IMG/VR virus record: IMGVR_UViG_2671181134_000011
Source of the DNA: a virus
Lineage: Duplodnaviria > Heunggongvirae > Uroviricota > Caudoviricetes
Length of the DNA: 17,913 nucleotides
Strand: one strand, 5' to 3'
Shown: positions 2,726 through 17,913 of the stretch, one piece after another
How positions within the stretch are numbered: the first letter of the stretch is position 1
Layout: each line of letters starts with the position of its first letter
Translations under genes and position numbers: made by a program
The notes under the pieces: generated by a model
The model's database searches: none
What the model saw: the letters and a program-made list of their open reading frames with translations, nothing else
Told to the model about the DNA's origin: nothing

Positions 2726-2754
2726 ATTGAAGCAGTTTATTGATCAGTTTGCAA
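2726..2754 (-). promoter_or_regulatory. Candidate late promoter (pR'-like) overlapping the 3' end of the Q-like gene
   Basis: On minus strand: -35 TTGCAA (plus 2749-2754), 17-nt spacer, -10 TTCAAT (plus 2726-2731). It lies ~60-80 nt upstream of the tR'-like terminator, as expected for a Q-utilisation promoter-terminator unit. Confidence 0.3.
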
Positions 2755-3309
2755 CATTTTTTTCTCTGTAACAAAAGCCATACGCATGGGGGCATGTAAC
2801 ATAAATTCAGATATCCCCAACCACTGATCAATTCGGCGTCTGCACGTAACCAACGTCCACTCAGGATGATCTGCATTTAACCTTTCGGCCATTTTCAGTT
2901 TGCTCATTCCCCGTCCTTCGTACCTTTGCCGGAGAATATTGATTAGTCCGGGATATTCCCCAAGCACCTCACTGATAACGCGATCAATAATCAACGCCTC
3001 TGTGTCTGTACAATGTGACAACCAGCTCTTCTGCTTCCCTCTGGTCATATCCCGAAAAAATGCCTCAAGTTCCGGTTTTTCCAGCCCGGATTTCTTCATT
3101 CTGCGTAAAACCTCATTAACTGCTGTTTTCGTCAGCTTTTTCGAAACCAGTAACCGGTTAAACATATTTCCGTATTTACCCCCACCGATATACGACCACC
3201 GCCCCCACATCCGTAATTTCCCCTGGATCCAGACTGCTTCCAGCGTGTTCAGGCGTAAATGTTCGCCGCTTTTGCCTGTAATTTCCGGATATATCATATT
3301 TACGCTCAC
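2737..3309 (-). CDS. Putative late-gene antiterminator Q (assigned by position; family not recognised by eye)
   Basis: 190-codon ORF immediately 3' of rusA (GTGA start/stop overlap at 3306-3309; alternative ATG at 3295-3297) and immediately 5' of the pR'-like promoter and terminator. No Zn-finger motif seen, so family assignment is uncertain. Confidence 0.5.
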   Translation of the reverse strand: MSVNMIYPEITGKSGEHLRLNTLEAVWIQGKLRMWGRWSYIGGGKYGNMFNRLLVSKKLTKTAVNEVLRRMKKSGLEKPELEAFFRDMTRGKQKSWLSHCTDTEALIIDRVISEVLGEYPGLINILRQRYEGRGMSKLKMAERLNADHPEWTLVTCRRRIDQWLGISEFMLHAPMRMAFVTEKKMLQTDQ

Positions 3310-3665
3310 TCACTCTCAATTTTGTAAATCTTCACACCCAGCCGACCACCAAGAACAAGCTGACCACGTACAATATTGATTTCATCAAACTGCTCATCGT
3401 CCATTAACAACCCCGCATGCGTAAGCGCATCCAGCGGTGCTTTCAGAATATTGTCCAGGTCACGGCGGCGCTTATCCGGTGGTTCTGCAATAATTTTTAT
3501 TGCCAACCGTCCGGACAGGCTTAATTTCAAGCGCTGCTGGCGAACAATAAGCGCCACTGCCCGGCGATAACGCTCCCCGGCTTTTGATACAAAATATGTG
3601 CTGCCACGGCGTCGCCAGTAAGTGTTCACCGTCGGCGGGTAAGGTAAAACCAAATCTATGAGCAT
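3306..3665 (-). CDS. rusA: RusA-type Holliday junction resolvase
   Basis: 119 aa; contains PPTVNTYWR and DKRRRDLDN...DALT, closely matching the RusA signature (DRRRRDLDN in the DLP12 protein, from memory). ATG at 3663-3665. Confidence 0.85.
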   Translation of the reverse strand: MLIDLVLPYPPTVNTYWRRRGSTYFVSKAGERYRRAVALIVRQQRLKLSLSGRLAIKIIAEPPDKRRRDLDNILKAPLDALTHAGLLMDDEQFDEINIVRGQLVLGGRLGVKIYKIESE

Positions 3666-3677
3666 CAGTCACCTCTT

Positions 3678-4727
3678 TTACCCAAGCACGCCAGTTGCAA
3701 AGGCGTGATCAAGAAAACGAAAAATTAAATCAACCTGAGAACCATGCTTTTCTTCGAACGCCAGCGGATCCGCATGAAGCTCGTTATGATGCTCCCGACA
3801 CAGCGGTAGCGTGAAAATATCGTGGGCTTTTGTTCCCATTCCCCCCTGACCATGACCAATCAGGTGATGCGGATCGTCAGCTGGCTTACCACAACACGCA
3901 CACGGCTGTGTCTTTACCCAGCGCATGTATTTCTCATTAACCCAACGGCGACGTTTAGGCCGCTTCATGAACGATTCAGGAGACTCCGGATCAACGGCGA
4001 TACTGACAACCGTTTTTTTCTGTGGTGGATTTTGTTGCTGGTGGACGTGAAGTGGCAGCGCAATATTTTTTGTGCGCTGCTTCAGTATGCTGATGGCGGT
4101 CTGCTCTCCCGGTATGATGTCGCTTTCGCGATACACCGAGCGGATTTTTTCCGCACGTAACCCCAGAGAACGACGTAATACTGCCTCCGGAAGCGCGTCC
4201 GCCACCTGATTGCAGACCGCCCACCAGGATAATTCAGCCAGCGACAATTCCCGCTCCTGCGTGCCATTCATTGCATGGCGTATGACGTCAATCATCCATG
4301 CTGACAGGTTTTGATGAGCAAGTTGCCCGAGTGATTCGGATGTCTGGTCACGCAGCTGGTTGTCACAGTGCCAGCACAACACCATCGCGCCAGCGCCATA
4401 ACGGTGAATGACGGTTTCACTGTGGTGATAATCGCCGTGTGGCCACTGGCAGGATTTAACATGGCGCAGTAACCAGTCAGACAATGCGCCAGCGCCACCA
4501 GCAGCACGAATCACTCGTTCGTCGCTGAAAAATGGCAGTAATGATTTATCCTCCGCCAGCGGCTGGCGAACGGCAGGAACGACCCCGGACGGCAGATTAC
4601 GCATGCTTTTCGGTTCCGGCTCCACCAGTACCCGGGTATTTTGGAATACCGGCATGGATTCATGGCCCGGCTTAACGATCACCAGCCCGAGTTCTGGCAC
4701 AAGAACAGGTCGAAGTAATACCCGCAC
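3678..4727 (-). CDS. DUF968/YdfU-like prophage protein with C-terminal HNH-like Cys/His motif
   Basis: 349 aa; GTG start at 4725-4727 preceded by GGAGG (4 nt spacer). C-terminus has CACCGKPADDPHHLIGHGQGG...LPLCREHHNELH (Cys/His cluster). Same length and neighbourhood (hok, rem-like, Q) as Qin ydfU, recalled from memory. Confidence 0.6.
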   Translation of the reverse strand: MRVLLRPVLVPELGLVIVKPGHESMPVFQNTRVLVEPEPKSMRNLPSGVVPAVRQPLAEDKSLLPFFSDERVIRAAGGAGALSDWLLRHVKSCQWPHGDYHHSETVIHRYGAGAMVLCWHCDNQLRDQTSESLGQLAHQNLSAWMIDVIRHAMNGTQERELSLAELSWWAVCNQVADALPEAVLRRSLGLRAEKIRSVYRESDIIPGEQTAISILKQRTKNIALPLHVHQQQNPPQKKTVVSIAVDPESPESFMKRPKRRRWVNEKYMRWVKTQPCACCGKPADDPHHLIGHGQGGMGTKAHDIFTLPLCREHHNELHADPLAFEEKHGSQVDLIFRFLDHAFATGVLG

Positions 4728-4728
4728 G

Positions 4729-5007
4729 TTACCTCCAGATACGTTGCTGGAATGTGCGGGATGGACGCGGTGGGCGCTCGGAGTAAGGAAGCCTGACGGA
4801 GATTATCCAGTGACGATAATCGAGGCTGAGGGCTTTCTTAATCTCGTATCCGTGTCTGCGGTAGCACTGAATTAGCCACTCGGCCTGTTCTTCAGTGCAT
4901 GGGGGATGCTGGAACCAGTCAGATTTGAAAGTGCGGGAACGCCGCCCGTGCCTGCTGGCAAAGACGGCAGAATCATCAGAATTGTGTAATTTGGTATCGT
5001 GCGCCAT
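4729..5007 (-). CDS. Hypothetical protein, possibly rem-like (between hok and the ydfU-like gene)
   Basis: ORF-track frame 4729-5136 trimmed to the internal ATG at 5005-5007, because the upstream part overlaps the hok mRNA terminator. Weak RBS; assignment is by position only. Confidence 0.3.
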   Translation of the reverse strand: MAHDTKLHNSDDSAVFASRHGRRSRTFKSDWFQHPPCTEEQAEWLIQCYRRHGYEIKKALSLDYRHWIISVRLPYSERPPRPSRTFQQRIWR

Positions 5008-5076
5008 CGGTTGTCTCTGCTGGCGCAGCAGGTGCCAGTTGTTCAGGCTGGCGTGCGAATTGTAAACCAGAATGCC

Positions 5077-5106
5077 AGGAAAAAACAAAACCCGCCGAAG
5101 CGGGTT
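5077..5106 (-). terminator. Intrinsic terminator at the 3' end of the hok mRNA
   Basis: Minus-strand RNA: AACCCGC-UUCG-GCGGGUU followed by UUGUUUUUUCC (plus-strand stem at 5089-5106, A-run at 5080-5090). Confidence 0.6.
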
Positions 5107-5174
5107 ACGTGCGGGTGCGTTGAGGATGCCTGACATATCAGAGGTGGCGAGGGATTTCTCCCTCGCCGGGTCTC

Positions 5175-5330
5175 TTACTCCTCAGGTTCGTAAACTGTGA
5201 AGACAGCGACCTCCGTCTGGCCGGTTCGGATTCGTACCTCGCAGAGGTCTTTCCTCGTTACCAGTGCCGTCACTATGACGGTTAAACAGATGACGATCAG
5301 GGCGATTAACATCGCCTTTTGCTGCTTCAT
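5175..5330 (-). CDS. hok: Hok-family membrane toxin (51 aa)
   Basis: Translation MKQQKAMLIALIVICLTVIVTALVTRKDLCEVRIRTGQTEVAVFTVYEPEE: single TM helix and conserved C-terminal region typical of Hok/RelF. ATG at 5328-5330 with AAGGAG 10 nt upstream. The ORF track extends it in frame to an ATG at 5387. Confidence 0.8.
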   Translation of the reverse strand: MKQQKAMLIALIVICLTVIVTALVTRKDLCEVRIRTGQTEVAVFTVYEPEE

Positions 5331-5506
5331 AGCCTGCTTCTCCTTGCCTTTCGGCACGTAAGAGGCTAACCTAGATTTGCCGTTCATAGATTGAGCCTCA
5401 GATTAATGTTAAGCGTCTTGCAGGACGCGTAATGTTAACTGGGGCTTTTCTCTATCTGCCTTTTGGTATTCATGCCTGAGACAGATAGCCTCAAGCACCC
5501 GCAGCA

Positions 5507-5534
5507 ATTCTACTTAACTATCCTTTCCCCGCAA
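5507..5534 (-). promoter_or_regulatory. Candidate hok mRNA promoter
   Basis: On minus strand: -35 TTGCGG (plus 5529-5534), 16-nt spacer, -10 TAGAAT (plus 5507-5512). The predicted 5' end GGGUGCUUGAGGCU resembles the 5' end of plasmid hok mRNA as I recall it. Confidence 0.35.
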
Positions 5535-5621
5535 ATCGTTTTTATCCCCAGCGACAAATCGAATACACCACCAGCGCCACCGCCATTGCGATCCCTACCG
5601 TTGTGAATGCCTCAGGCCAGG

Positions 5622-5966
5622 TCATCGTAAAACATCCTCTGCGCTTATCAGTCCGTTTCGCTTCAGGTAGTCCATCGCCTTACCCGGCAATTTACAGTCC
5701 TGCTTCGTTTTCCTCAGTTGCCAGGTTAACTGCTTTACCAGCATGGTTAACTCGTCGACCAGACGCTGATGTCCCACTGGTTTGTATTCATGCAATTTAC
5801 CGGCTGGCTCTGCTGCCAGCGATGCCAGTGCGATTTCCAGAACAGCAATATCCATCTTATATGTGCGGATGATGTCATGGTCGTTTGTGCCCGGTATGCA
5901 CAGTCTCTGTGCTTCAATAGTCTCCTCTGCGTGAGCTATTAACTGCTCTCTGGTAAAAGTGGTCAT
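5622..5966 (-). CDS. Hypothetical nin-region protein (114 aa), paralogue of 6480-6905
   Basis: ATG at 5964-5966 overlaps the stop of the upstream gene (ATGA). N-terminus [17 protein letters not shown]...[11 protein letters not shown] parallels MTELTKEQLIEEAKLKI...KIALTSLEAEP of ORF 6480-6905. Confidence 0.5.
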
Positions 5967-6478
5967 GCCGCGCTTCCTTCTTGCTTATTAACGATTACAC
6001 CGTCATATATTTCATTAAGGTGTCCCCTCAACTCCATGCGCCTTAATGCAGACAACATGTAATCGCATTCAACCTGCTTATTTCCAGTAAATGGCTTATC
6101 GTCAGGATCACCCCAACAGCAATTACCCTTGGGCCACCCATGTACTTTCCGTACTCTTCCGTTAACAACGTGAAGTAATCCCCAGCCAGGTGGTAAATCC
6201 TCAATTGAAATAATTCCCGGCTCACTAATAAAGAATCTCCAGTCGCCCATGCCAAGAGAGGGATTTTTACGGAAACGCTTTTTTCTATCTGCCAACAAGT
6301 CAGCACGAGAACACTTCGCCTCTATCAGGCATGATGCTGAATTTCTGAATCCCATAGCATCTGGTTGTTCTCCAGTACTGGTTACAGCAACAAAGCGGTC
6401 ATGAAAGCAAACCTTGAACCCGTTGCGCTTAAGGAACCTGTACGCAATCTGACAGAGTTCGCGGTGTGTTAACGCCAT
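5963..6478 (-). CDS. Putative PD-(D/E)xK-fold nuclease (171 aa)
   Basis: Contains GEQPDAMGF-x8-LIEAK, a PD...ExK arrangement with an upstream acidic residue (HDRFVAV). ATG at 6476-6478. Confidence 0.5.
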
Positions 6479-6479
6479 C

Positions 6480-6905
6480 TCATTCTCCTTTGATGCGAAT
6501 GTTTACAACCTGACAAACCTCTTTGAGTACCCAGTCAACAGCGTCTTTCCACGCTCCAGTCTCAACTGGCGGATTCTCACGTTTTACTTGTTCATAGAAG
6601 TGCACAGCTTTAACCAGTCCTTCAGGTACTACAGGCACTGGCGGCATGCGATACAATGGAGTAACACAACGCGAAGCCTCATATTTATCTGACGGACGCT
6701 GAAATATCTCACCGAACCCATATTTTTCAATATCTCGCAGTTCCTCGTCGTCAGTCCATGCCACCGGTTCTGCTTCCAGCGATGTCAGTGCAATTTTGAA
6801 TAACTCACCCTCTACTCGTGCCACGCCTGAATTGGGATGGCATTTCGCAATCGCTATTTTTAATTTGGCTTCTTCGATTAATTGCTCTTTTGTTAATTCA
6901 GTCAT
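6480..6905 (-). CDS. Hypothetical nin-region protein (141 aa), paralogue of 5622-5966
   Basis: ATG at 6903-6905. Shared N-terminal motif with ORF 5622-5966, with nucleotide-level similarity (tgcttccagcgatgtcagtgcaatt vs tgctgccagcgatgccagtgcgatt). Ends in IRIKGE encoded by an 18-bp repeat. Confidence 0.55.
   Translation of the reverse strand: MTELTKEQLIEEAKLKIAIAKCHPNSGVARVEGELFKIALTSLEAEPVAWTDDEELRDIEKYGFGEIFQRPSDKYEASRCVTPLYRMPPVPVVPEGLVKAVHFYEQVKRENPPVETGAWKDAVDWVLKEVCQVVNIRIKGE
6484..6501. repeat. 18-bp direct repeat tctcctttgatgcgaatg, copy 1 (gene junction)
   Basis: Identical 18-mer recurs at 7363-7380; on the minus strand it encodes IRIKGE at the C-terminus of the upstream gene. Confidence 0.8.
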
Positions 6906-7000
6906 TTTTCATTACCGCTCTTTCTGGCGGCCTCCTGATGTTCTGAGGGTGCAGAAATCCCTCCGGCTAAGGATTAAATTTTTAACAGTTCTAAATTTAA

Positions 7001-7357
7001 TTATTCAGTTCTGGATTTTGTCGCCCTGCGTATCCGCGCTTTCGCGTTACGCTCAATCTGAATTAGCTTTTCTATATTTTTTCGCCTTTCCCGCTCCTCC
7101 TGGCGCAAGTGCCTTACATCATCTGCCAGTCTGGTTTCTCTTTTCGCCACAGAGAGCATCCAGTCAAATGGCTCCACAACTGCACCGCAGATTTTACAGC
7201 GGACCTGACGCTCTTTTTCGTCAACCAGGACAGAGGCGTGATGACAATATGGTCTTTCCGATGGCTCATAAAGAAAATTAACCTGATTACGAGGGTCATC
7301 CTCTTTTACCGGAAATAAAACGATATTGCTTAACTCATCCTCTGGTTTTATTTCCAT
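7001..7357 (-). CDS. Hypothetical Cys/His-motif protein (118 aa) with basic C-terminal tail
   Basis: ATG at 7355-7357 preceded by GGAGAGGAG. Motif PYCHH-x15-CKICG, then a K/R/E-rich C-terminus (RQEERERRKNIEKLIQIERNAKARIRR). Confidence 0.5.
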   Translation of the reverse strand: MEIKPEDELSNIVLFPVKEDDPRNQVNFLYEPSERPYCHHASVLVDEKERQVRCKICGAVVEPFDWMLSVAKRETRLADDVRHLRQEERERRKNIEKLIQIERNAKARIRRATKSRTE

Positions 7358-7796
7358 GCTCCTCTCCTTTGATGCGAATGCCAGCGACGCGTAATGCGTG
7401 TTCTAGGTCAATCAGGTAAAGCCAACTGCCATTTTCTTTAGGTATCATGACATGTCGCTCATCTGCATTTATCGGGTGTCCATATCGAAGGTCGTAACGA
7501 GTCGGTAATTGAACTTCCCGCGCTTCCAGTTCAGCAATACGCTTGCTCCCATCAGAGATAACGCCTTCGTAATACTCACGCTGCTCGTTGAGTTGTGATT
7601 TTGCTTCTTCCAGTCCATCCAGCAAATCAGCGATAATATCCGCTTCCCGATGACGGATGTGACGCTTAAACGCCGCTAAAGCTGCATCACAATCCTGTTC
7701 AGCGTTTGGACTGTCTGGCTTTTCCTGATACCACGCCAGCGTCGATTGATAGTTTTGTGCTGCCTCACGCAGTGCCTGATAGTCAATCTTGCTCAC
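7335..7796 (-). CDS. Hypothetical nin-region protein (153 aa)
   Basis: GTG start at 7794-7796 preceded by AAAGGAGG (7 nt spacer), overlapping the stop of the upstream gene. C-terminus ...IRIKGEEHGNKTRG contains the 18-bp repeat. Confidence 0.5.
   Translation of the reverse strand: MSKIDYQALREAAQNYQSTLAWYQEKPDSPNAEQDCDAALAAFKRHIRHREADIIADLLDGLEEAKSQLNEQREYYEGVISDGSKRIAELEAREVQLPTRYDLRYGHPINADERHVMIPKENGSWLYLIDLEHALRVAGIRIKGEEHGNKTRG
7363..7380. repeat. 18-bp direct repeat tctcctttgatgcgaatg, copy 2 (gene junction)
   Basis: Identical to 6484-6501. Confidence 0.8.
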
Positions 7797-8100
7797 TGGC
7801 TGCCTCCTTTGCCGGGATTTCTAACTTTTGAGTGGTTGTATCAAATTCAAACAACTTAACCACGTCATCAAACAGGACATAATCACCATCAGGATCTTCA
7901 GTCATATCAGTGCCACAATCCTGACCGCACGAGTCGCAACCACCCATATCAAGCTCGTATCGCTTCAGGTTCGCGATATTTGATAAATTCAGCGCCAGTA
8001 CAGCCAGATCATTAACCTCGTCTGCGGTATACCCTGCACCATGTCCATACATTCCAATGCGGGATATGATTTCTTCTACACGTTGTTTTGTGATCGTCAT
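7783..8100 (-). CDS. Hypothetical acidic protein (105 aa) with CDSCGQDCG motif
   Basis: ATG at 8098-8100 preceded by GGAGTGAAGAGAAAA; the ORF track extends it to a TTG at 8124. Acidic C-terminus. Confidence 0.45.
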   Translation of the reverse strand: MTITKQRVEEIISRIGMYGHGAGYTADEVNDLAVLALNLSNIANLKRYELDMGGCDSCGQDCGTDMTEDPDGDYVLFDDVVKLFEFDTTTQKLEIPAKEAASEQD

Positions 8101-8398
8101 TTTTCTCTTCACTCCGATATACAAGGATTACTACGCCCCCTCTGCTGATTGCGCGAGCTGGATCTCCTGGTTCCATACCGTCAATCCCGAAGGCTTCGAA
8201 AAATGCATCCATTGCCTGCTGGCGTTGATCCTGCCTACGGCGTTTATTCCATTTTTTCATGAACAACAGTGACATCCATCGTCCGCTGCAGAACATGATG
8301 TAGAAATAACCAAGAAGTGCCAGGCCGGTATTCAGGGCCGTATCAATCGTTATCGCCGGGTCAATATTCACTGACCACCTCCTGAAAAATAACCGCAT
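8012..8398 (-). CDS. Hypothetical protein with N-terminal hydrophobic segment and basic stretch (128 aa); uncertain
   Basis: ATG at 8396-8398 with GGAGAAA ~10 nt upstream. Hydrophobic segment ITIDTALNTGLALLGYFYIMF followed by KKWNKRRRQDQRQQ. Overlaps both neighbours in other frames (38 nt with 8361-8657; ~90-110 nt with 7783-8100), so the true extent is uncertain. Confidence 0.3.
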   Translation of the reverse strand: MRLFFRRWSVNIDPAITIDTALNTGLALLGYFYIMFCSGRWMSLLFMKKWNKRRRQDQRQQAMDAFFEAFGIDGMEPGDPARAISRGGVVILVYRSEEKNDDHKTTCRRNHIPHWNVWTWCRVYRRRG

Positions 8399-8657
8399 GA
8401 CCCAGTTTCTCCGTCAGTGCCAGCTCAGTCCTTGCACCTGCCGACTGCTGCCAGCCTTTCAGTATGTAAACCGCATCCACGCAACGGAGCATTGCCATGC
8501 AAATATCCATGTAGTGTGGCTGAGTCAGCCCGTCCGGAAGCACAGCCGGATTTAAAACGGTATGCCCTTCCCGTTTCAGCGCCTCTGCCGCCTTGTGAAA
8601 TGCCTCGCGGTTAAAATTTTCATATCCCGTCATCGGACCGGCGATATAAATCCTCAC
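8361..8657 (-). CDS. DUF4406-like (nucleoside 2-deoxyribosyltransferase-like fold) small protein
   Basis: 98 aa starting MRIYIAGPMTGYENFNREAF...LNPA, the characteristic N-terminus of this fold family. GTG start at 8655-8657 preceded by AGGAGGG and overlapping the upstream stop (GTGA). Confidence 0.6.
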   Translation of the reverse strand: MRIYIAGPMTGYENFNREAFHKAAEALKREGHTVLNPAVLPDGLTQPHYMDICMAMLRCVDAVYILKGWQQSAGARTELALTEKLGHAVIFQEVVSEY

Positions 8658-8971
8658 TCCTGAACCCTCCTGTCGAAATAAACGTAGTTATTCACTGCGC
8701 CCAACTTCATCCCAAACTTTTCGGCAATTTCCCGTTGGGGTACGCCACGCTGATGCAGTTGCCGCGCCAGCTCAATATCACGCTGTGAGAATTTGGCTGA
8801 CTGGTGATAATCACCCCGTAACATCATGCTGATCCCCAGTTCCCGCGCTTTCGTCCTGACGGCTGACTCACTACGGCCAATCAGATAACCGATGCTTTCG
8901 ACTCTCATCGTTCCCGCACACTGCCGGAGTATCAGGATTTCAGCCCAACGCCACTTCTTCCAGCCACTCAC
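8654..8971 (-). CDS. Putative HTH DNA-binding protein (~105 aa)
   Basis: HTH-like segments ESIGYLIGRSESAVRTKARELGI and RGVPQREIAEKFGMKLGAVNNYV. Start taken as the GTG at 8969-8971 overlapping the stop of the 44-codon ORF (GTGA); the ORF track extends it to a GTG at 9058; an ATG at 8906-8908 is an alternative start. Confidence 0.45.
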   Translation of the reverse strand: MSGWKKWRWAEILILRQCAGTMRVESIGYLIGRSESAVRTKARELGISMMLRGDYHQSAKFSQRDIELARQLHQRGVPQREIAEKFGMKLGAVNNYVYFDRRVQE

Positions 8972-9102
8972 CGCTGCTGCTCTCTGGTGGTGGTAATATC
9001 CCGGAGAATATCCCTGTGTTTGTTCAGTTCCCGCAGCGCAGCACAGACTCGCTCCCACTTCTGGACATCACTTTTCGCCCGACGCAGTTCGCGGTTTGCC
9101 AT
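8968..9102 (-). CDS. Possible 44-aa ORF (MANRELRRAKSDVQKWERVCAALRELNKHRDILRDITTTREQQR)
   Basis: ATG at 9100-9102 lies 6 nt after the stop of 9109-9684. Below the ORF-track size cut-off; no clear SD, so expression would depend on translational coupling. Confidence 0.25.
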   Translation of the reverse strand: MANRELRRAKSDVQKWERVCAALRELNKHRDILRDITTTREQQR

Positions 9103-9108
9103 ATGCAG

Positions 9109-9684
9109 CTATGGTAAAACCAGGTCATCCGCTTGCGTTTCGGTGAACAGTGGCAACGACTGCACAATATCCACCACAGTTTCTGTTTTAATATCTTCCT
9201 GTGTAGTCGTTTGCTGGACTGGTAACGCAACACCTGCTGGCTGAGGAAGGGCTTTACCATCCGTTTCCGCTACAGATGCGGCTTTCGGCTCTACTGGTAA
9301 ATTATCGCCCGGCATGCAGTAACGAAATTTACCGCCCTGATTCACGCGAATCAGACGCCCTTTGCTGATTGCCATTGCCAGCGATGAATTCGCACGGCGG
9401 GAGGTAATTCCGAACATCAATGCCAGCTCATCCGCCGTTTGTGGGCCATGTTGTTCAATCGCCTCTGTCAGCATTTGCGCCGTCACTTTTGGTGGTTGTA
9501 TCACAGATTCACTTTCCCCTGCCTGAGTCAGCCACCACATCGCCCCCCTGTTATCCGCTTCACCACGGCGTTTCAGTTTCCACAGTTCGTTGACAGCCTC
9601 TTCACGACTGATTCCAAGGCGCGCAGCCACCACATGTGAAGAGGCTTTTTTCAGTGCTTTCAGTGCGTCAGATACGGTTTCCAT
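9109..9684 (-). CDS. Hypothetical protein with two winged-helix-like segments (191 aa)
   Basis: ATG at 9682-9684 preceded by GGAGG. Segments [22 protein letters not shown] and [27 protein letters not shown] resemble wHTH recognition units. Confidence 0.55.
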
Positions 9685-9705
9685 TAAAATTTCCTCCGGA
9701 CAAAA

Positions 9706-10452
9706 TTACTTCACAACCCTCATATTGCTGACATTTGGACGCCAGCTATCCCAGTTAAACGTCACCCATCGACCACCGTTCATGGTCATGCGGTCCATAA
9801 TCCTCTCACCAAGAAGCGTACTCATTGCGGCATGATTCAGGTTTGTTAACATCCCGACACTGCACAGTGATGCTGTCCGGCGATCAATTATCTGGTGCAA
9901 TACCACCTGCTCGTTTTTCGTCTCCCGCTGGACGCCTATTTCATCCAGGACCAGCAAATCAACCCCGCAAAGCTCCTGTAAAAATTTTTCCCCGGATTTG
10001 CCGTTGTCGTAGCTGTCATGCAACACGCTCATGACGTCAGACACGGTGACGATAATCACGCTGCGCCCCTTCACCATCAGCCGGTTGCCCATCGCCGCTG
10101 CAAGGTGATTTTTCCCGGTGCCGGTTTTACCGCTGAACACAAAATTCGTGCACCCGGTCATCAGTTCGTCAGCTATGGATTTGGCCTAGCTCAGCGCGTA
10201 TTTTTGCCCGTCGTTCTGCACCTGATAATTTGCAAACGAGCATTTGCTGTGCAGAGGCTGGATGCCCGAACGATTCAGGATTTTTTCCACCCGCAACTGG
10301 CGATTCTGGCAGTTAATCTCCTCGCTGCGTTTTCGTCCTTCAGCAAGTTGCCATTCCCGCCACTCCTCCACCGTCCGGTACGGTGGAACCGCCCCCAGTG
10401 GTGCAAGTCTGCGAATACATTCAAGAACCCCAACTGCCGCAATGTTTTTCAT
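9706..10452 (-). pseudogene. dnaC-like helicase-loader gene interrupted by one in-frame amber codon (TAG at 10186-10188)
   Basis: ORFs 10186-10452 and 9706-10161 are in the same frame: ...FANYQVQNDGQKYALS*AKSIADELMTGCTNFVFSGKTGTGKNHLAAA.... Walker A GKTGTGKNHL and downstream LLVLDEIGVQ match DnaC/IstB-type AAA+ loaders; the halves align colinearly with E. coli DnaC as recalled. ATG at 10450-10452. Confidence 0.7.
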
Positions 10453-10458
10453 GCCACA

Positions 10459-11427
10459 TCACCCCCTGAATCCCGGCGGTATTTCAGTGTCCGGTTCAGA
10501 AATGTGATTTACGCAACGCTGCGCGGGCGAACGCCCCAGGCGGATAACCAGTTCATCCCATTTTTCCCTGAGTTTTGCCGGACTCATGATGTTTTTTACC
10601 CAGAACGAATCCCGCTGGACACGCCCAAACATTTCACAAATCTGCCGGTGACTACGTCCATCCAGCATACGCATCATGCGCACATCATTCGCCCAGGTCG
10701 TCCAGTTAGGTTCTCTGGGGCGTGACACCTCACCATCATCACTGGCGGCCTGTTCATACAACGCCACAACCCGTCCCCAAATCCACTGCGCACAGGCGAC
10801 ATCCTCACGGGTACCCCACTGTCGCTTCGGTACATTCCAGGTATGCGCATCTGGGTGTTTCTCCAGAAATCGCTCAACTGGTGATGATCGTTTTTCGTCC
10901 AGCAGTGAAACGTCCGGACAAGAAGATCTTTTATCTGACGGATCAGGTTTTAATACTGACGGATCGGGGTCAATCATCGCCCCCCTAATACGCAGTTTTT
11001 TATCAACCGTTGATCCATCAACATTTGACGGGTCAACCGTTGAGGGGGCAATATTTGACGGGTTAACTGTTAACGGGTCATTTTTTGCCGGGCTAATTTT
11101 TCTTTTCGGTTTATATGCCTCACGCGCCGCAGTTGCAGCTGCTTCGAGTTTTTCCACATTAAGCCGATAGATATTGCTTACGTTACGCCCACCGACCTTA
11201 CGCTCTTCCTTCGTCAGCCAGCCCTCTTTCGCCAGTTCTGCAATAGCAGATTTAACGGTGGATTCACTTCTTGCACCGATCTGACGCCGGATAGTTTCAA
11301 TGGCAGGCCATGACACGCCCTCGTCATTGCTGTAGTCTGCAAGACGGGCCATAACCGCCACCCTGGATAAGATCATGCCGGTGAAGGCGCACCCTTCCCA
11401 GACAAGACCATGAAGCTTGCTGCTCAT
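10459..11427 (-). CDS. Replication initiator (lambda O-like) with N-terminal HTH domain
   Basis: ~322 aa from the ATG at 11425-11427 (track start is a GTG at 11442). N-terminal HTH-like region, then a 5-residue periodic linker DPLTV/NPSNI/APSTV/DPSNV/DGSTV encoded by the iterons. Sits directly upstream of the dnaC-like gene. Confidence 0.7.
   Translation of the reverse strand: MSSKLHGLVWEGCAFTGMILSRVAVMARLADYSNDEGVSWPAIETIRRQIGARSESTVKSAIAELAKEGWLTKEERKVGGRNVSNIYRLNVEKLEAAATAAREAYKPKRKISPAKNDPLTVNPSNIAPSTVDPSNVDGSTVDKKLRIRGAMIDPDPSVLKPDPSDKRSSCPDVSLLDEKRSSPVERFLEKHPDAHTWNVPKRQWGTREDVACAQWIWGRVVALYEQAASDDGEVSRPREPNWTTWANDVRMMRMLDGRSHRQICEMFGRVQRDSFWVKNIMSPAKLREKWDELVIRLGRSPAQRCVNHISEPDTEIPPGFRG
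11003..11092. repeat. Iteron array (about six 15-bp units) inside the O-like gene; candidate replication origin
   Basis: Consecutive 15-mers tcaaccgttgatcca / tcaacatttgacggg / tcaaccgttgagggg / gcaatatttgacggg / ttaactgttaacggg / tcattttttgccggg. An in-gene iteron block is the arrangement known for ori-lambda. Confidence 0.5.
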
Positions 11428-11449
11428 AAACCCCCCGAACACCGTGCTT

Positions 11450-11875
11450 TTAGTGCATCACCACAGCATTCCCTGCCGGGCCGCCGCGATTCATCTGGTC
11501 ATACAAAACAACCGCTGACGCAACAAAATCATCGACATCCTTCACCAGCCGATCCCTCCGTTCGACGATCTCACGGTAATATTCAGAACTGTGGCTGCGC
11601 ATACGGGCCACCAGCAAAGGCGGCATCGCCTTTTCGATCGCCGGTAACAGAGCCTGCATTTTTTCAACAGCATCAGGGGTGTCTTTATCCAGCCAACGGA
11701 AAATTTTCTGTGTATTACGGGCCAGGGCTTCCGGATGGCTGTCGTCGTACAGTTCAGGGAACGTCATCCCCAGTTCGAAATAAGTCCGGGCTATTTCAGC
11801 TGCAGGAACTTTCTCACCGTCCGGATAGGCCCAGGCATTGATCGCCATGCGGATGTGCTCATGCTTGATTTTCAT
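11450..11875 (-). CDS. YdaT-like (CII-like) early regulator (141 aa)
   Basis: Begins MKIKHEHI, as I recall for Rac YdaT; ATG at 11873-11875 with AGGAG 9 nt upstream. Position between the cro-like gene and replication genes matches cII-type regulators. Confidence 0.5.
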   Translation of the reverse strand: MKIKHEHIRMAINAWAYPDGEKVPAAEIARTYFELGMTFPELYDDSHPEALARNTQKIFRWLDKDTPDAVEKMQALLPAIEKAMPPLLVARMRSHSSEYYREIVERRDRLVKDVDDFVASAVVLYDQMNRGGPAGNAVVMH

Positions 11876-12140
11876 GAATCAAGCTCCTAGAAAGTGGTTG
11901 TGTTAACGTTTTGGTATCTTCCAGCTCAGGCCAAATATTCATCCAATCAAAAGGCCTTAGTTGCTGACGTGTAACTTCACCATTACTGGCTCGCTCAATA
12001 AGGACACATAACGATGCCCCTAACACTTGGCCTTTACTCAATGCCTTTCTTAGATAACCGATGCTGGTACCACACTCGCATGCAAACATACGCTGTTCAT
12101 CTGACGAAAGAGAATTGAGAAATATTCTTAATTCTTCCAT
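11859..12140 (-). CDS. YdaS/Cro-like HTH regulator (93 aa), divergent from the repressor
   Basis: ATG at 12138-12140 with AAGGAG 7 nt upstream. HTH-like segment CGTSIGYLRKALSKGQV; first gene of the minus-strand early-right operon. Confidence 0.55.
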   Translation of the reverse strand: MEELRIFLNSLSSDEQRMFACECGTSIGYLRKALSKGQVLGASLCVLIERASNGEVTRQQLRPFDWMNIWPELEDTKTLTQPLSRSLIHENQA

Positions 12141-12247
12141 AGCTACTCCTTAGTAAACACAGCAAAGAATACCTATAGGTAAACAAAAGTCAATACCTTT
12201 GGGTTGTTTACCTTACGGTAATCACATCTATTATTTACCTATGGACA
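12141..12247. promoter_or_regulatory. OR-like intergenic control region with TACC-N4-GGTA palindromes
   Basis: Perfect palindrome tacctataggta at 12170-12181; taccttacggta at 12209-12220; degenerate copies tacctttgggtt (12194-12205) and tacctatggaca (12236-12247). Lies between the divergent starts at 12140 (minus) and 12241 (plus). Confidence 0.45.
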
Positions 12248-12660
12248 AATATGAATTTAGACGACAGCAGCTCATCAAAATTCGTGATGAGAAATGCGAT
12301 GGTAAAGCGGTTAACGTAGCCAGAAAGATCGGTCGCGAGCCTTCTTATGTATCAAGAATGTTGTACCCAGAGGGGAAAAAGGGAAAAAAACGGATCGCTG
12401 ATGATATGGTGGAGATTATCGAAGAGTCCTTTGGGTTACCCCGAGGATGGATGGATGGTATCGTTTCATCATCAACGAACACAGCCTCCAATTATGAAAC
12501 AAGGGTTCTAACGCCACGACAACGTATTTTTTTAGATCTCTTAGACGAGCTGCCAGAAAGTGAAGCGGATAACTTATTAAAAACTCTTGAAGAGAAAAAA
12601 CAGTATTACAATATGATCTACGAAGAAATCCGTAAAAAGAAAGCACAAAACGCATCATAA
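12241..12660 (+). CDS. Prophage repressor, DicA/RacR-like XRE-family HTH protein (139 aa)
   Basis: ATG at 12241 (track start is a TTG at 12199). HTH GKAVNVARKIGREPSYVSRML; C-terminal LDLLDELPESEADNLL resembles the DicA C-terminus as I recall it. Divergent from the cro-like gene. Confidence 0.65.
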   Translation: MDKYEFRRQQLIKIRDEKCDGKAVNVARKIGREPSYVSRMLYPEGKKGKKRIADDMVEIIEESFGLPRGWMDGIVSSSTNTASNYETRVLTPRQRIFLDLLDELPESEADNLLKTLEEKKQYYNMIYEEIRKKKAQNAS

Positions 12661-14020: not shown

Positions 14021-16492
14021 ATGAATAAAATCTTTATTTGCGCTGCTATTCCTGACGAACAGGCCATAGAAGAAGATAGCGCTGTTGCGGTGGCCACTGC
14101 CATTGAAGCCGGTGATGAGCGTCGCGCACGCGCAAAATTTCACTGGCAATTTCTGGAGCAATTCCCGGCAGCTCAGGACTGCGCTTATAAATTTATTGTC
14201 TGCGAGGATAAACCCAGTATACCCCGCCCTGCCCTCGATTCCTGGGATACCGAATATATGCAGGAAAACCGCTGGGATGAGGAGTCTGCGTCCTTTGTCC
14301 CGGTCGAACCCGAATCCGATCCGATGAACGTCACTTTTGACAATCTGGCCCCTGAAGTACAGAACGCCGTCATGGTTAAGTTCGACGCATGTGAAAACAT
14401 CACTGTTGATATGGTGATTAGCGCTCAGGAATTGTTGCAGGAAGACATGGCAACATTCGACGGCCATATCGTTGAAGCGTTGATGAAGATGCCAGAAGTT
14501 AACGCCATGTATCCGGAGCTTAAGCTGCATGCCATCGGGTGGGTTAAGCATAAATGTAAACCTGCTGCTAAATGGCCCGAAATTCAGGCAGAGATGCGCA
14601 TCTGGAAAAAACGTCGCGAAAGTGAACGCAAGGAAACCGGGAAATACATATCTGTCGTTGATATCGCCCGTTCCAGAGTAAACCAACAGAACACTGAAAA
14701 CGCTGCTGAAAAAACCGGGGCTGTCACTGTTGCCGTTCGCCGCGAATACAAACAGACATGGAAAACACTCGACAATGAACTGGCCTGCGCCCTCTGGCCC
14801 GGTGATGTGGATGCAGGAAACATTGACGGTACCATCCATCGCTGGGCGACAAATGAGGTTATCGACAAGGATCGCGAAGACTGGAAGCGTATCTCAGCAT
14901 CAATGCGCAAACAGCCCGAAGCACTTGCCTATGACCGTCAGACTATTTTTGGCCTTGTTCGCGAACGTCCGATCGATATTCACAAAGATCCCGTTGCACT
15001 GAACAAATATATCAGCGAATACCTGACGACAAAGGGCGTGTTTGAACATGAAGAAACAGACCAGAGCTCTGCTGATGCTCTCCAGTCACCAGCAGCACAA
15101 ACTGCTCCAGTGGAGACGGCAGAATCCGATACTCAAAAAAATGAAATCCTGGTGGAAGCTGAACCATCTGTAGAGCGTGAAGGACCATTTTATTTCGTCT
15201 TTACCGATAAGGGCGGGGAAAAATACGGCAGGGCAAACAAACTTTCTGGTCTGGACAGGGCGCTGGCTGCCGGCGGTACCGAAATCTCAAAAGAAGAATA
15301 TTTTGCCCGAAAAAATGGCACATACACGGGCTTACCGCAAAATGTGGATAGCACTGAAGATTCCGAACAACCAGAGCCGGTAAAAGTTACCGCTGACGAA
15401 GTAAACAAAATTATGCAGGCAGCCAATATCAGCCAGCCTGACGCCGATAAATTGCTTGCTGCATCACGTGGTGAATTTGTTGAAGGGATTAGCGACCCGG
15501 ATGATCCGAAATGGGTGAAAGGGATCCAGAGTCGCGACGCTGAGGACCAGAATCAGCCCAACGTGAAACAAAATGAGCCAGAAGCGGAACAAAACAGCCC
15601 GGATACGCAACAAAACGGGCCAGAAGAACAACAACCAGAACCAGCAGTGCAACAGGAACTGGAAAAAGTTTGCACCGCATGCGGTCAGACCGGTGGCGGC
15701 AACTGTCCTGACTGTGGTGCGGTGATGGGGAACGCAACCTACCAGGAAACATTCGATGAAGAAAATCAGGCTGAAGCTCAGGAAAATGATCCGGAGGAAA
15801 TGGAAGGCACTGAACATCTGCACAAGGAGAACACTGTCAGCGATCAGTATCACGCCAGCGATAATAAAACTGGCGAAACAGCAAATCCCTTAATTAAAGT
15901 GAACGGTCATCATGAAACCACATCCACCAGCAGGTTGTGGCACCATCTGATGATTGACCTTGAAACAATGGGAAAAAATCCTGATGCGCCAATAAACGCT
16001 ATAGCCGGTAAGTTTTTTGATCCGGCAACCGGAGAGATGGGGCCAGAATTCAGCAAAACTATCGATCTGGAAACCGCAGGCGGGGTCATCGATCGGGACA
16101 CCATTAAGTGGTGGCTGAAACAGTCACGCGAAGCACAATCCGCCATTCTGACCGATGAAATCCCGTTGGATGATGCACTGCTGCAATTCCGGGAATTTAT
16201 CGACGAAAACTCCGGTGAATTTTTTGTTCAGGTCTGGGGTAACGGTGCAACTTTCGACAACGTGATTTTACGCCGTTCATATGAACGGCAGGGGATCCCC
16301 TGCCCGTGGCGTTACACCAATGATCGCGATGTAAGAACGATGGTTGCTCTGGGACTGGTGATGGATTTCGACGCAAGAACGACTATTCCATTCGAAGGTG
16401 AACGCCATAACGCGCTGCACGATGCGCGTTACCAAGCAAAATACGTTTCAGCCATCTGGCAAAAACTGATCCCGAGTCAGGCTGATTTTTAA
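14021..16492 (+). CDS. Large early-left protein (823 aa): N-terminal region of unknown function, acidic low-complexity linker with CxxC-x7-CxxC ribbon, C-terminal DEDDh 3'-5' exonuclease domain
   Basis: ATG 14021 with GAGG 10 nt upstream; single open frame to TAA 16490-16492. DnaQ-like motifs in order: MIDLETMG (D646, E648), WGNGATFDNV (D746), HNALHDARY (H796/H800, D801). Zn-ribbon CTACGQTGGGNCPDCG at nt 15671-15715. Directly upstream of xis-int. Confidence 0.8.
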   Translation: MNKIFICAAIPDEQAIEEDSAVAVATAIEAGDERRARAKFHWQFLEQFPAAQDCAYKFIVCEDKPSIPRPALDSWDTEYMQENRWDEESASFVPVEPESDPMNVTFDNLAPEVQNAVMVKFDACENITVDMVISAQELLQEDMATFDGHIVEALMKMPEVNAMYPELKLHAIGWVKHKCKPAAKWPEIQAEMRIWKKRRESERKETGKYISVVDIARSRVNQQNTENAAEKTGAVTVAVRREYKQTWKTLDNELACALWPGDVDAGNIDGTIHRWATNEVIDKDREDWKRISASMRKQPEALAYDRQTIFGLVRERPIDIHKDPVALNKYISEYLTTKGVFEHEETDQSSADALQSPAAQTAPVETAESDTQKNEILVEAEPSVEREGPFYFVFTDKGGEKYGRANKLSGLDRALAAGGTEISKEEYFARKNGTYTGLPQNVDSTEDSEQPEPVKVTADEVNKIMQAANISQPDADKLLAASRGEFVEGISDPDDPKWVKGIQSRDAEDQNQPNVKQNEPEAEQNSPDTQQNGPEEQQPEPAVQQELEKVCTACGQTGGGNCPDCGAVMGNATYQETFDEENQAEAQENDPEEMEGTEHLHKENTVSDQYHASDNKTGETANPLIKVNGHHETTSTSRLWHHLMIDLETMGKNPDAPINAIAGKFFDPATGEMGPEFSKTIDLETAGGVIDRDTIKWWLKQSREAQSAILTDEIPLDDALLQFREFIDENSGEFFVQVWGNGATFDNVILRRSYERQGIPCPWRYTNDRDVRTMVALGLVMDFDARTTIPFEGERHNALHDARYQAKYVSAIWQKLIPSQADF

Positions 16493-16556: not shown

Positions 16557-16805
16557 ATGGCAAGACTTATTCTTCTCACTGAGTGGGCAAAAGAGGAATT
16601 CAGTGACCCGGTCCCGACTCCGGGCACGTTAAGTAAATACGCTAAAGCCGGAATGATATTTCCTCTCCCCAAAAAAGTTGGAAGACACTGGCGAGTGGAT
16701 CCTCGAGCTCGCTTTGTCGGAATGGTAAACAAGCCGGAAGTGATCGCCACAGATCACCCTGCTTTGAAGAGGATACTGGAAGATGGCGCGCCCACGAAAA
16801 TATAA
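16557..16805 (+). CDS. xis: Excisionase (Xis-like)
   Basis: 82 aa, MARLILLTEWAKEEF...GMIFPLPKKVGRHWRV resembles the lambda Xis fold signature (LTLQEW...RIFPPPVKDGREY). Overlaps the int start by 23 nt, as in lambda. Confidence 0.7.
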   Translation: MARLILLTEWAKEEFSDPVPTPGTLSKYAKAGMIFPLPKKVGRHWRVDPRARFVGMVNKPEVIATDHPALKRILEDGAPTKI

Positions 16806-17913
16806 AACTGAAGTTCCGGGATTATCTCCGTATTTTGACAAAAGAAATAACAAAGTTTACTGGCGTTACAGGCATCCCATAACAGGAAAAAATCACGGAC
16901 TCGGCAGTATTGACCAGAAACAGGCAGAAGCTATTGCAGCAGAAGCGAACAGCCGTCTTGCCAGGCAACAAATGGAACAAATGCTCAGTCTGCAGGAGAA
17001 AATTATTAGTGATACCGGTAGTCCATCAACCGTTTCTGCTTTTCTGAATAGTTACCGAAAAATTCAACAGGAAAGATATGAAAACGGAGAGATCAAACTC
17101 AACACACTGAAACAGAAAGCATCCCCTCTCAGAGTATTTGATGAACGTTTTGGTACCAGACCATTAGATGCCATAACCGTAAAAGATGTGGTATCGGTGC
17201 TGGAAGATTACAAGGCAAAAGGACATAACAGAATGGGACAAATTTTCAGGAAAGTACTGATCGATGTTTTCCGGGAGGCCCAGCAAACGGGCGATGTCCC
17301 GCTAGGCTTTAACCCTGCAGAATCGGCAAAAAAACCACAGGTACGGATATCACGGCAACGACTGACCTTTGATGAGTGGATGATGATTTATAATGCAGCG
17401 GAAAAGGATGGTTACTTTTTACAGCGTGGTATGCTGCTGGCACTGATGACAGGCCAGCGCCTTTCAGATATTTGCAAAATGAAATTTTCGGATATCAGGG
17501 ATGGTTATCTTCATGTCGAACAGCAAAAAACAGGAACCCGGATTGCCATCCCTCTGGCTCTGCGTTACGATAAATTAAATCTCACCCTGGATGATGTGGT
17601 GTCATCCTGTCGCGATTGCGTTCTTAGTCCGTGGCTATTGCACCACCATCATGCTAAAGGGACAGCTAAGCGCGGCGGGATGGTTAAGCCAGCAACGTTA
17701 ACCGTTGCATTTAAAAAAGCCCGGGATTCTGTGGATTACAACTGGCGTGCTAATGGCACCCCACCCTCTTTCCATGAGCAGAGATCTTTATCAGAACGAT
17801 TGTTCAGAGAACAGGGAATTGATACCAAAATTTTGCTGGGCCATTCGAATCAAAAAATGACCGATATTTACAACGACGCACGCGGTAAGGAATGGAAAAA
17901 ACTGGTCATTTGA
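16783..17913 (+). CDS. int: Tyrosine integrase, lambda Int family (376 aa, complete)
   Basis: Catalytic-region motifs TGQRLSD, HVEQQKTGTRIAIP, HEQRSLSERL and LLGHSNQKMTDIYNDARGKEWKKL align with lambda Int (VVTGQRVGD, YVEQSKTGVKIAIP, HELRSLSARL, LLGHKSDTMASQYRDDRGREWDKI). Stop codon is the last three bases of the window. Confidence 0.9.
   Translation: MARPRKYKTEVPGLSPYFDKRNNKVYWRYRHPITGKNHGLGSIDQKQAEAIAAEANSRLARQQMEQMLSLQEKIISDTGSPSTVSAFLNSYRKIQQERYENGEIKLNTLKQKASPLRVFDERFGTRPLDAITVKDVVSVLEDYKAKGHNRMGQIFRKVLIDVFREAQQTGDVPLGFNPAESAKKPQVRISRQRLTFDEWMMIYNAAEKDGYFLQRGMLLALMTGQRLSDICKMKFSDIRDGYLHVEQQKTGTRIAIPLALRYDKLNLTLDDVVSSCRDCVLSPWLLHHHHAKGTAKRGGMVKPATLTVAFKKARDSVDYNWRANGTPPSFHEQRSLSERLFREQGIDTKILLGHSNQKMTDIYNDARGKEWKKLVI

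Follow-up and report, generated by a model that had tools for sequence, protein, structure and literature searches.

Introduction

In lambda- and P22-like phages, the ren-nin region lies after the replication genes and before the genes for a Holliday-junction resolvase and the antiterminator Q. It consists of small, densely packed, overlapping and dispensable genes which are subject to mosaic exchange at gene boundaries. Here we analyze the same slot in a viral DNA stretch of 17,913 nucleotides (Caudoviricetes, IMG/VR record IMGVR_UViG_2671181134_000011; referred to as the window), which is part of a Rac/Qin-type lambdoid prophage from an E. coli-like host. The slot is occupied by a block of ten small genes on the minus strand (g1–g10 in transcription order, positions 5622–9684), followed by a 27-residue open reading frame (ORF), g11, which was missed in the initial annotation and extends the run to position 5542. 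In all likelihood the block is an accessory-gene slot of the early-right operon in which separately exchangeable cassettes keep a fixed rank order, and not a functional unit.

The nin-equivalent position assigned to the block by the initial annotation is borne out by its neighbors: it follows the replication genes and precedes hok/sok, DUF968, RusA and Q, and g1 occupies the position of lambda ren. In contrast to lambda, however, the resolvase/Q part is composed of DUF968, RusA and DUF1133/Q, as in Rac and Qin, and none of NinA–NinH is matched by the ten block proteins in Pfam, PHROG or NCBIfam. As anticipated, the block genes did not resolve to housekeeping functions such as NinB or NinG, no such family being returned by the profile searches. 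Rac and Qin, two cryptic prophages in E. coli K-12, resemble the window in their YdaS/YdaT-like, DnaC-like, hok/sok, DUF968 and RusA genes, in the DicB-region neighbors present in relatives and in the defective, nonsense-mutated state, but they carry other cargo between the replication gene and hok. The K-12 counterparts of the DnaC-like gene, hok/sok and DUF968 are presumably of the ydaV, hokD and ydfU type, respectively.

In T-even phages, the insertion of free-standing homing endonuclease genes has given rise to 'genes in pieces'. The surroundings of g9 are reminiscent of this arrangement, a likeness that we take as a lead only: g9 lies between two pieces that are fused elsewhere, an HNH gene alternates with it, and the site is polymorphic for presence and absence of the gene. 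The class of g9 and its relatives are, however, repair- or resolvase-like.

The exo-xis region of lambda and Shiga toxin (Stx) phages (Ea22, Ea8.5, orf60a/61/63/73) resembles the block in that g6 belongs to the Pfam Ead/Ea22 family and g7 and g10 have close homologues next to Ead/Ea22 genes in this region of the Stx phage ArgO145. In lambda, ea22 is followed by ea8.5, and this order is mirrored by g6 (Ea22-like) and g7 (zinc protein). In contrast, the cassettes of the window lie in the pR operon instead of the pL operon, and g6 and g7 have no significant sequence match to any solved structure; this includes the C-terminal part of g6. Ea22 is modular, with an N-terminal domain, a coiled-coil part and a C-terminal domain that varies, and a nuclear magnetic resonance structure of the C-terminal domain of lambda Ea22 has been published (PMC10834534). 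A prolysogenic effect was shown only for Ea22 of lambda and phi24B, which carry other C-terminal domains (PMC7093339).

Results

Gene content of related loci

Related loci were collected from IMG/VR with g9, g7 and g3 as anchors (233 loci) and supplemented with two loci from RefSeq; the proteins of the block and its flanks were mapped onto all 235 by tblastn. Eighty-one of these loci contain the DUF1627 end (g1) together with hok or its neighbor. They display 24 different combinations of block genes (41 if the interval length is counted as well), and the full gene set of the window is present in none of them. The order from g2 to g11 is not violated in a single one of the 81. Conditional co-occurrence among block genes is often below 20%. 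Of 36 loci with g9 and a flank of 4.5 kb or more on either side, 30 lack any further block gene in the vicinity, and in only six g9 is accompanied by g7 or g8. Among 32 loci with g7, this gene is found near hok in 31, near DUF968 in 30 and near g9 in four, and g3 is found together with g1 in 24 and with g2 in 18 of 28 loci. Since the genes assort independently across loci, the block is described as a rank-ordered slot that is filled combinatorially rather than as a co-inherited unit.

A search of PADLOC-DB v2 with the ten block proteins (E ≤ 0.01) did not return any family, and a search of NCBIfam gave no usable match. The initial annotation had considered the block the most likely place in the window for an undescribed small-protein system. 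The number of gene combinations, the predominantly solitary occurrence of g9 and the empty PADLOC result do not sustain this proposal.

The prevalence of single genes also differs. Within 5,426 E. coli genomes g7 was detected in 1,679, g9 in 931, g3 in 574 and g5 in 533, which corresponds to a threefold spread. A count with a longer query (5,064 of 5,426 genomes) was inflated by the sok-containing end of this query and was replaced by these counts per gene. At least 80% of the block is covered by only one of 20,395 complete E. coli records. The window block looks like a recombinant in these alignments, as its upstream half (g1–g6) is of the type found in locus L161 and its downstream half (g6–g11 and hok) is of the type found in loci L083 and L118. 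Close homologues of g7 and g10 are present in the pL exo-xis region of ArgO145 as well, where they accompany Ead/Ea22 genes in the interval from int to the recombination genes.

Architecture and expression of the block

Between positions 5542 and 9684 the minus strand is about 98% coding and contains a run of small genes between the DnaC-like gene and hok/sok. The tightly coupled block of the initial annotation is therein confirmed as ten minus-strand ORFs. All ten encoded proteins match PHROG families (E-values 1e-25 to 1e-120) and five of them match Pfam above the curated cut-off. The plus-strand ORFs at 5603–5872, 6796–7281 and 8987–9244 had no match in the PHROG search and were treated as spurious. 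The gene families of the block are under purifying selection, with ratios of nonsynonymous to synonymous substitution rates (dN/dS) of 0.10–0.41 for the alleles from the 235 related loci.

The first gene in transcription order, g1 (DUF1627), has the ribosome-binding site GGAGG upstream of its ATG, and most other starts in the block are preceded by Shine-Dalgarno-like GGAG or AGGAG, as read from the junctions. Stop and start codons overlap as GTGA at g1/g2 (8968–8971) and g2/g3 (8654–8657), and as ATGA at g9/g10 (5963–5966) and g10/g11 (5622–5625). The first three of these had been listed initially and were confirmed, whereas a further listed junction, g5/g6 with the GTG of g6 at 7794–7796, turned out to be an overlap of 14 nt instead of 4 nt. 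The overlap of g3 and g4 amounts to 11 nt, given a GTG start of g4 at 8371, as annotated by RefSeq in a relative with 99% identity. The ATG of g5 (8100) is located inside the g4 ORF, which reaches 8012, resulting in an out-of-frame overlap of 89 nt. Finally, g6 and g7 overlap by 23 nt (ATG of g7 at 7357), and g8 and g9 are separated by a gap of 1 nt (stop of g8 at 6480, ATG of g9 at 6478).

In a pattern scan of the minus strand from 5100 to 12300, no terminator-like site was found, and four promoter-like sites were detected compared to 8.2 expected from shuffled sequences. A single weak promoter-like match lies inside the block, and one of the four sites, a sigma-70-like match (12193–12166), is situated just upstream of the gene in cro position. 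The block is probably co-transcribed. The coupled operon proposed in the initial annotation is upheld by the overlapping junctions and by the lack of terminator-like sites on the minus strand: all genes lie on the same strand, stops and starts overlap or abut, and no internal terminator-like site was found. The exception is the only sizeable intergenic gap, 95 nt on the minus strand at 6906–7000. For this gap no significant RNA fold (z = -0.51), no Rfam family and no terminator were found. Other loci have about 478 nt with two small ORFs at this position, and the gap is probably a scar of a cassette junction. The Rfam scan (gathering threshold and E ≤ 1) identified no RNA family inside the block, sok being the sole match.

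Ead/Ea22-type genes and the IRIKGE junction

The 153-residue product of g6 (7335–7796) is Ead/Ea22-like (PF13935 with 49.7 bits against a cut-off of 27; phrog_250, 7e-46), and the 3' end of the gene is formed by a sequence element that we refer to as the IRIKGE junction. Sequence comparison of g6 with solved structures, including the C-terminal domain of lambda Ea22, gave no significant match. The products of g8 (141 residues, 6480–6905) and g10 (114 residues, 5622–5966) both belong to phrog_660. The former consists of an N-terminal leader and a middle domain and ends in NIRIKGE, and the latter combines a related N-terminal leader with a C-terminal domain. They cover complementary halves of the 193-position phrog_660 profile, as g8 corresponds to positions 3–143 and residues 67–114 of g10 correspond to positions 146–193. 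In loci without g9, the middle domain of g8 and the C-terminal domain of g10 form one ORF of 171 residues (10799–11314 in locus L084).

Initially, g8 and g10 were described as a paralogue pair. This holds for the N-terminal residues 1–56 (about 50 residues in common, 34% identity) but not for the remainder of the two proteins. Correspondingly, g6 and g8 have nothing but a C-terminal stretch of about 29 residues in common. No match of g8 or g10 to PF13935 was obtained; phrog_60 is common to both, and g8 is connected to g6 via phrog_250 and phrog_16519. In addition, g10 is 90% identical to gp10 of Stx phage ArgO145. By these comparisons g6, g8 and g10 are predicted to be shuffled Ead/Ea22-type proteins, i.e. 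members of a domain-shuffling family and not true paralogues.

The junction element, CATTCGCATCAAAGGAGA, is an exact direct repeat of 18 nt that closes both g6 (copy 1, 7363–7380, minus strand) and g8 (copy 2, 6484–6501, minus strand, at the g8/g9 boundary). It codes for the terminal ...IRIKGE and simultaneously carries the ribosome-binding site AAGGAG of the next gene. With one mismatch allowed, the 16-mer core of the element occurs 198 times in 182 of the 235 related loci. It is preceded by 36 distinct contexts of 15 residues and followed by several different genes. For g9, the preceding gene could be assessed in 87 loci. In 49 of these it ends in ...IRIKGE or a close variant and is Ead/Ea22-like, mostly with 119–315 residues, and in 38 it ends in ...HLRTKGE and is mostly a 62-residue ORF. 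We infer that IRIKGE-type junctions may be sites of cassette swapping by relaxed homologous recombination, in which case the end of the preceding protein would simply result from the junction. Recombination of this kind has been described for lambdoid sequences that have diverged and for defective prophages (PMC2327257, PMC3945230).

The PD-(D/E)xK nuclease-fold gene g9

The 171-residue product of g9 (5963–6478) is related to MmcB and Hjc. An AlphaFold2 model based on an alignment of 36 sequences has a predicted local distance difference test (pLDDT) score of 87.6 and contains the restriction-endonuclease-like alpha/beta core fold. Asp40, Glu53 and Lys55, which form the D...(D/E)-x-K motif, are invariant in these 36 sequences as well as in a set of 40 in which identity drops to 33%. 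According to the model, g9 has a PD-(D/E)xK nuclease fold with the catalytic triad, and is a putative nuclease.

Fold matches in BFVD include proteins named MmcB-like, and a broader g9 profile matches SPO1766 (pdb entry 3dnx, E = 2.3e-4) over the catalytic core. In Pfam, g9 itself has no match, PF06319 included. Five of 40 distant relatives match PF06319 with a best E-value of 2.9e-4, which is below threshold, and Hjc matches are likewise sub-threshold. Since g9 has no Pfam match and its distant relatives remain sub-threshold, we assign it to a separate, unnamed family apart from PF06319; this family is large and comprises no fewer than 3,211 clusters at 50% identity. Membership in the MmcB-like family PF06319 is not supported by the sequence scores, and this family is retained as nearest relative only. 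MmcB functions in mitomycin C resistance in Caulobacter.

The dN/dS value of g9 is 0.10, and in some members from Salmonella g9 is fused to an Ead/Ea22 N-terminus. With 95–97% nucleotide identity the gene is found on 297 plasmids (e.g. 6001–6516 in L238 and 5001–5516 in L239). On IncY P1-like phage-plasmids it adjoins Ead/Ea22 genes. On IncI2 conjugative plasmids it is the last gene of an operon oriented divergently to mobC and the relaxase gene. Because relaxase genes are usually located in the lagging region (PMC11541004), g9 is probably on the leading side of oriT in the IncI2 plasmids, as judged from the position of the relaxase gene. In ArgO145 the slot of g9 is occupied by an HNH endonuclease gene (gp11, 4423–4788 in L236), which overlaps by 4 nt with the 90%-identical g10. 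Some loci have neither g9 nor the HNH gene and contain a single fused ORF instead. From its distribution, g9 seems to behave as a self-contained mobile cassette.

The remaining genes of the block

The motifs named in the initial annotation, i.e. the PD-(D/E)xK protein, the DUF4406 protein, the helix-turn-helix (HTH) proteins and a Cys/His protein, are all present. The Cys/His protein is g7 (118 residues, 7001–7357; phrog_1621, 5e-56), in which a C-x-H...C-x2-C zinc ribbon is followed by a basic helix. Cys38, His40, Cys54, Cys57 and most of residues 81–110 do not vary among 20 homologues with identities as low as 46%, and this pattern of conservation holds across Enterobacterales. A phmmer search of the PDB yielded no solved relative of g7 and a weak match to the S27e zinc ribbon only. 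A relationship to Ea8.5 or Lar was rejected, the weak S27e match and the Pfam match to Lar (E = 0.064) being put down to generic zinc-ribbon similarity.

The DUF1627 gene g1 (717 nt, 8968–9684; PF07789, 205.8 bits) encodes winged-HTH-like regions and is inactivated by an amber codon. The in-frame TAG at 9109–9111 divides it into ORFs of 191 residues (9109–9684) and 44 residues (8968–9102), which correspond to positions 1–206 and 210–252 of phrog_630, respectively. On this alignment the two ORFs are read as one DUF1627 gene, the 44-residue ORF being its C-terminal remnant. In 109 of 112 related loci the codon at this position encodes Ser. [quoted passage not shown] A weak match of g1 to phrog_142 ('Ren-like exclusion protein', 2e-4) was also obtained. 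According to a 2026 preprint, DUF1627 genes are among the conserved neighbors of the prophage small RNAs (sRNAs) PasA and PasC.

With its GTG start, g2 (8654–8971) encodes an HTH DNA-binding protein of 105 residues (phrog_323 'transcriptional regulator', 5e-25). Matches to Sigma70_r4_2 and further HTH families are all sub-threshold, and in the RefSeq relative the gene is annotated as a 318-nt 'DNA-binding protein'. The 98-residue product of g3 (8361–8657) belongs to DUF4406 within the nucleoside 2-deoxyribosyltransferase-like superfamily. It matches PF14359 over all positions of the profile (1–91 of 91; 120.5 bits against a cut-off of 22), phrog_355 'nucleoside 2-deoxyribosyltransferase' (5e-45) and, weakly, PF05014 (E = 0.032). 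No close relative of g3 was found among solved structures.

The g4 gene (8012–8371) encodes a small membrane/basic protein of DUF4752 (PF15944, 130.3 bits). Its conserved core stops near residue 92; the final 27 or so codons are not conserved and extend into g5, where they are read in a different frame. Elsewhere, alleles of g4 end at 91–105 residues or, in many relatives, are frameshifted to 72–79 residues. The acidic 105-residue protein encoded by g5 (7783–8100; phrog_3126, 2e-65) has 226 homologues, and identity is at least 77% in all 120 among the matches listed. The initial annotation had highlighted its CDSCGQDCG sequence. As a conserved motif this could not be maintained, Cys62 being the sole invariant Cys. 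Since Cys55 and Cys58 vary, a conserved Cys metal site in g5 was ruled out. The AlphaFold2 model of g5, calculated from a shallow alignment, has a pLDDT of 49 and is unusable.

The hydrophobic 27-residue ORF g11 (5542–5625, minus strand) lies just upstream of hok/sok and is connected to g10 by the ATGA overlap. It has no Pfam or PHROG family. It is present in 23 of 28 loci anchored on DUF4406, and its dN/dS is 0.11 (27 alleles). In the literature on DUF4406, DUF1627, DUF4752, 2-deoxyribosyltransferases in connection with anti-defence, and MmcB, no functional data were found.

Prophage context and nonsense mutations

On the plus strand, the window contains an integrase gene (16783–17913), a gene for a large exonuclease with an Rv2179c-like domain (14021–16492) and a gene in repressor position (12199–12660). 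On the minus strand, the YdaS-like gene in cro position (11859–12140) and the YdaT-like gene (11450–11875) are followed by the HTH O-like gene (10459–11442), the DnaC/IstB-like replication ATPase gene (9706–10452; PF01695, 1.3e-17), the block, hok/sok, DUF968 (3678–4727), RusA (3306–3665) and the DUF1133/Q antiterminator gene (2737–3309). The sok antisense RNA region (5325–5500, minus strand) was identified with Rfam RF01794 (112.4 bits; gathering score, 59), and the hok/mok ORF is located at 5175–5387.

The DnaC-like gene is interrupted by an in-frame TAG at a position where relatives have Gln. Because of this amber codon, the prophage lineage looks replication-defective, as far as can be read from the sequence. 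Both amber codons, in the DnaC-like gene and in DUF1627, are common to three IMG/VR loci, and for both genes RefSeq notes an 'internal stop' in the relative from the STEC strain. Hence, this would be a defective prophage lineage that is spreading.

Some further features of the window lie outside the block. In the interval between hok and DUF968 there is a minus-strand ORF of 135 residues (4729–5136), of which residues 70–135 alone match phrog_1212. The real gene within this ORF is probably the 'hypothetical protein' of about 66–90 residues annotated in relatives. Downstream of Q, the Rfam sRNA family STnc100 matches at 2126–2326 with 47.6 bits, the gathering score being 47; this match contains a short masked run (N in the sequence, X in translations) at about 2200–2245. 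Positions 1–2100 are 97–100% identical, over the full length, to an E. coli prophage gene annotated as 'DUF6645 domain-containing protein' or 'SASA family carbohydrate esterase'. This part has no long listed ORF because the gene extends past the start of the window. In strains S19-651 and LZSFT34 a gene of the DUF6645/SASA type is 150–200 kb away from their copy of the block, and therefore the prophage of the window is a different recombinant.

Discussion

We infer co-transcription, the recombination mechanism and all biochemical roles of the block genes as follows. One long rightward transcript would start at a promoter on the cro side and run through the YdaS/YdaT-like genes, the O-like and DnaC-like genes, the block, hok/sok, DUF968 and RusA to Q. 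Translation would be coupled by the overlapping stop and start codons and by ribosome-binding sites embedded in the respective upstream gene. Cassettes are probably exchanged by recombination at short conserved junctions such as IRIKGE/AAGGAG. Regarding the single genes, g1 and g2 are probable DNA-binding regulators (g1 being dead in the window), g3 is a probable nucleoside- or nucleotide-processing enzyme, and g4 and g11 are probable small membrane proteins. The domain-shuffled Ead/Ea22-type genes g6, g8 and g10 probably encode proteins that modulate the decision between lysis and lysogeny. The probable product of g7 is a zinc-ribbon protein that also has a basic helix, and that of g9 is a PD-(D/E)xK nuclease related to MmcB and Hjc.

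It is highly improbable that all or most of the block genes encode parts of a single, coherent system of cooperating proteins, for instance for defence, anti-defence or host takeover. Such a system could be suspected from the tight packing on one strand with overlapping stops and starts, from the mixture of DNA-binding, enzyme-like, membrane and nuclease proteins, and from a position known for accessory functions. Tight packing with stop/start overlaps is, however, the normal build of lambdoid early operons and therefore no evidence for a functional system. Moreover, the variable combinations without a single complete set, the threefold difference in prevalence, the mostly solitary g9, the occurrence of cassettes in the other early operon of Stx phages and on plasmids, the lack of PADLOC matches, and the first gene being a pseudogene in the window with the others intact all speak against one system. 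Another explanation, namely that the block has no current function in the window copy and is cargo that decays within a dead prophage, appears unlikely as well. The amber codons in the DnaC-like gene and DUF1627, the g4 tail that enters g5, the frameshifts of g4 in many relatives and the frameshifted remnants of g9 in relatives are in line with decay. On the other hand, nine of the ten block genes and g11 are intact ORFs with start signals, the families of the block are under purifying selection, and genes of cryptic prophages are still expressible and can be rescued by recombination (PMC3945230).

A different role can be considered for g9. It could be a selfish, free-standing homing-type endonuclease that cuts 'empty' Ea22-like/phrog_660 alleles and becomes copied into them during repair, with the other block genes as passive context. 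This would account for both the spread of g9 and the split arrangement of g8 and g10, and is consistent with the intact PD-(D/E)xK triad and the confident nuclease fold, with the polymorphism at one site (g8-g9-g10 versus a single ORF of g8 middle and g10 C-terminal domain) and with the unrelated HNH gene in the same slot of ArgO145. The high nucleotide identity of g9 across lambdoid prophages and IncY P1-like and IncI2 plasmids, and a conserved junction directly upstream in essentially all 87 loci, point in the same direction. Nevertheless, we consider this explanation improbable: the nearest relatives, MmcB-like proteins and Hjc, are repair or resolution nucleases, g9 has no obvious additional DNA-recognition domain, and g10 possesses an N-terminal leader of its own, so that the pattern is accounted for just as well by ordinary recombination between Ea22-like genes in tandem. 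A function that benefits the phage would fit the low dN/dS of g9 and its stable fusions with Ead in Salmonella. In a broader form, g9 might be a single-gene mobile module of lambdoid prophages, P1-like phage-plasmids and IncI2 plasmids that always arrives behind an R(I/T)KGE/ribosome-binding-site junction and alternates with the HNH gene, acting either as a homing-type shuffler of Ea22-like arrays or as an establishment or anti-defence nuclease of incoming DNA, which is quite unlikely too.

Some points weigh against the rank-ordered accessory slot that we favor. For nine of the eleven genes, the proposed function is backed by weak homology or none, and one of them may be an anti-defence factor. 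Related loci were sampled via three anchor genes and are mostly from E. coli, and the co-occurrence counts ignore phylogeny and sampling. Promoters and terminators were predicted by pattern matching only. Finally, g1, g2 and g3 may form a small sub-module, given their fairly frequent co-occurrence.

Taken together, the region represents an ordinary, textbook-style mosaic accessory slot, the genes of which already belong to Pfam DUF or PHROG families and are found in hundreds to thousands of E. coli genomes. The reusable IRIKGE/AAGGAG junction may explain how arrays of Ea22-like genes are shuffled. The mobile nuclease cassette g9 is the sole element of the block with some potential: it encodes a widespread, uncharacterised nuclease related to MmcB and Hjc that travels alone between phages and plasmids, and is a reasonable candidate for single-gene screening.

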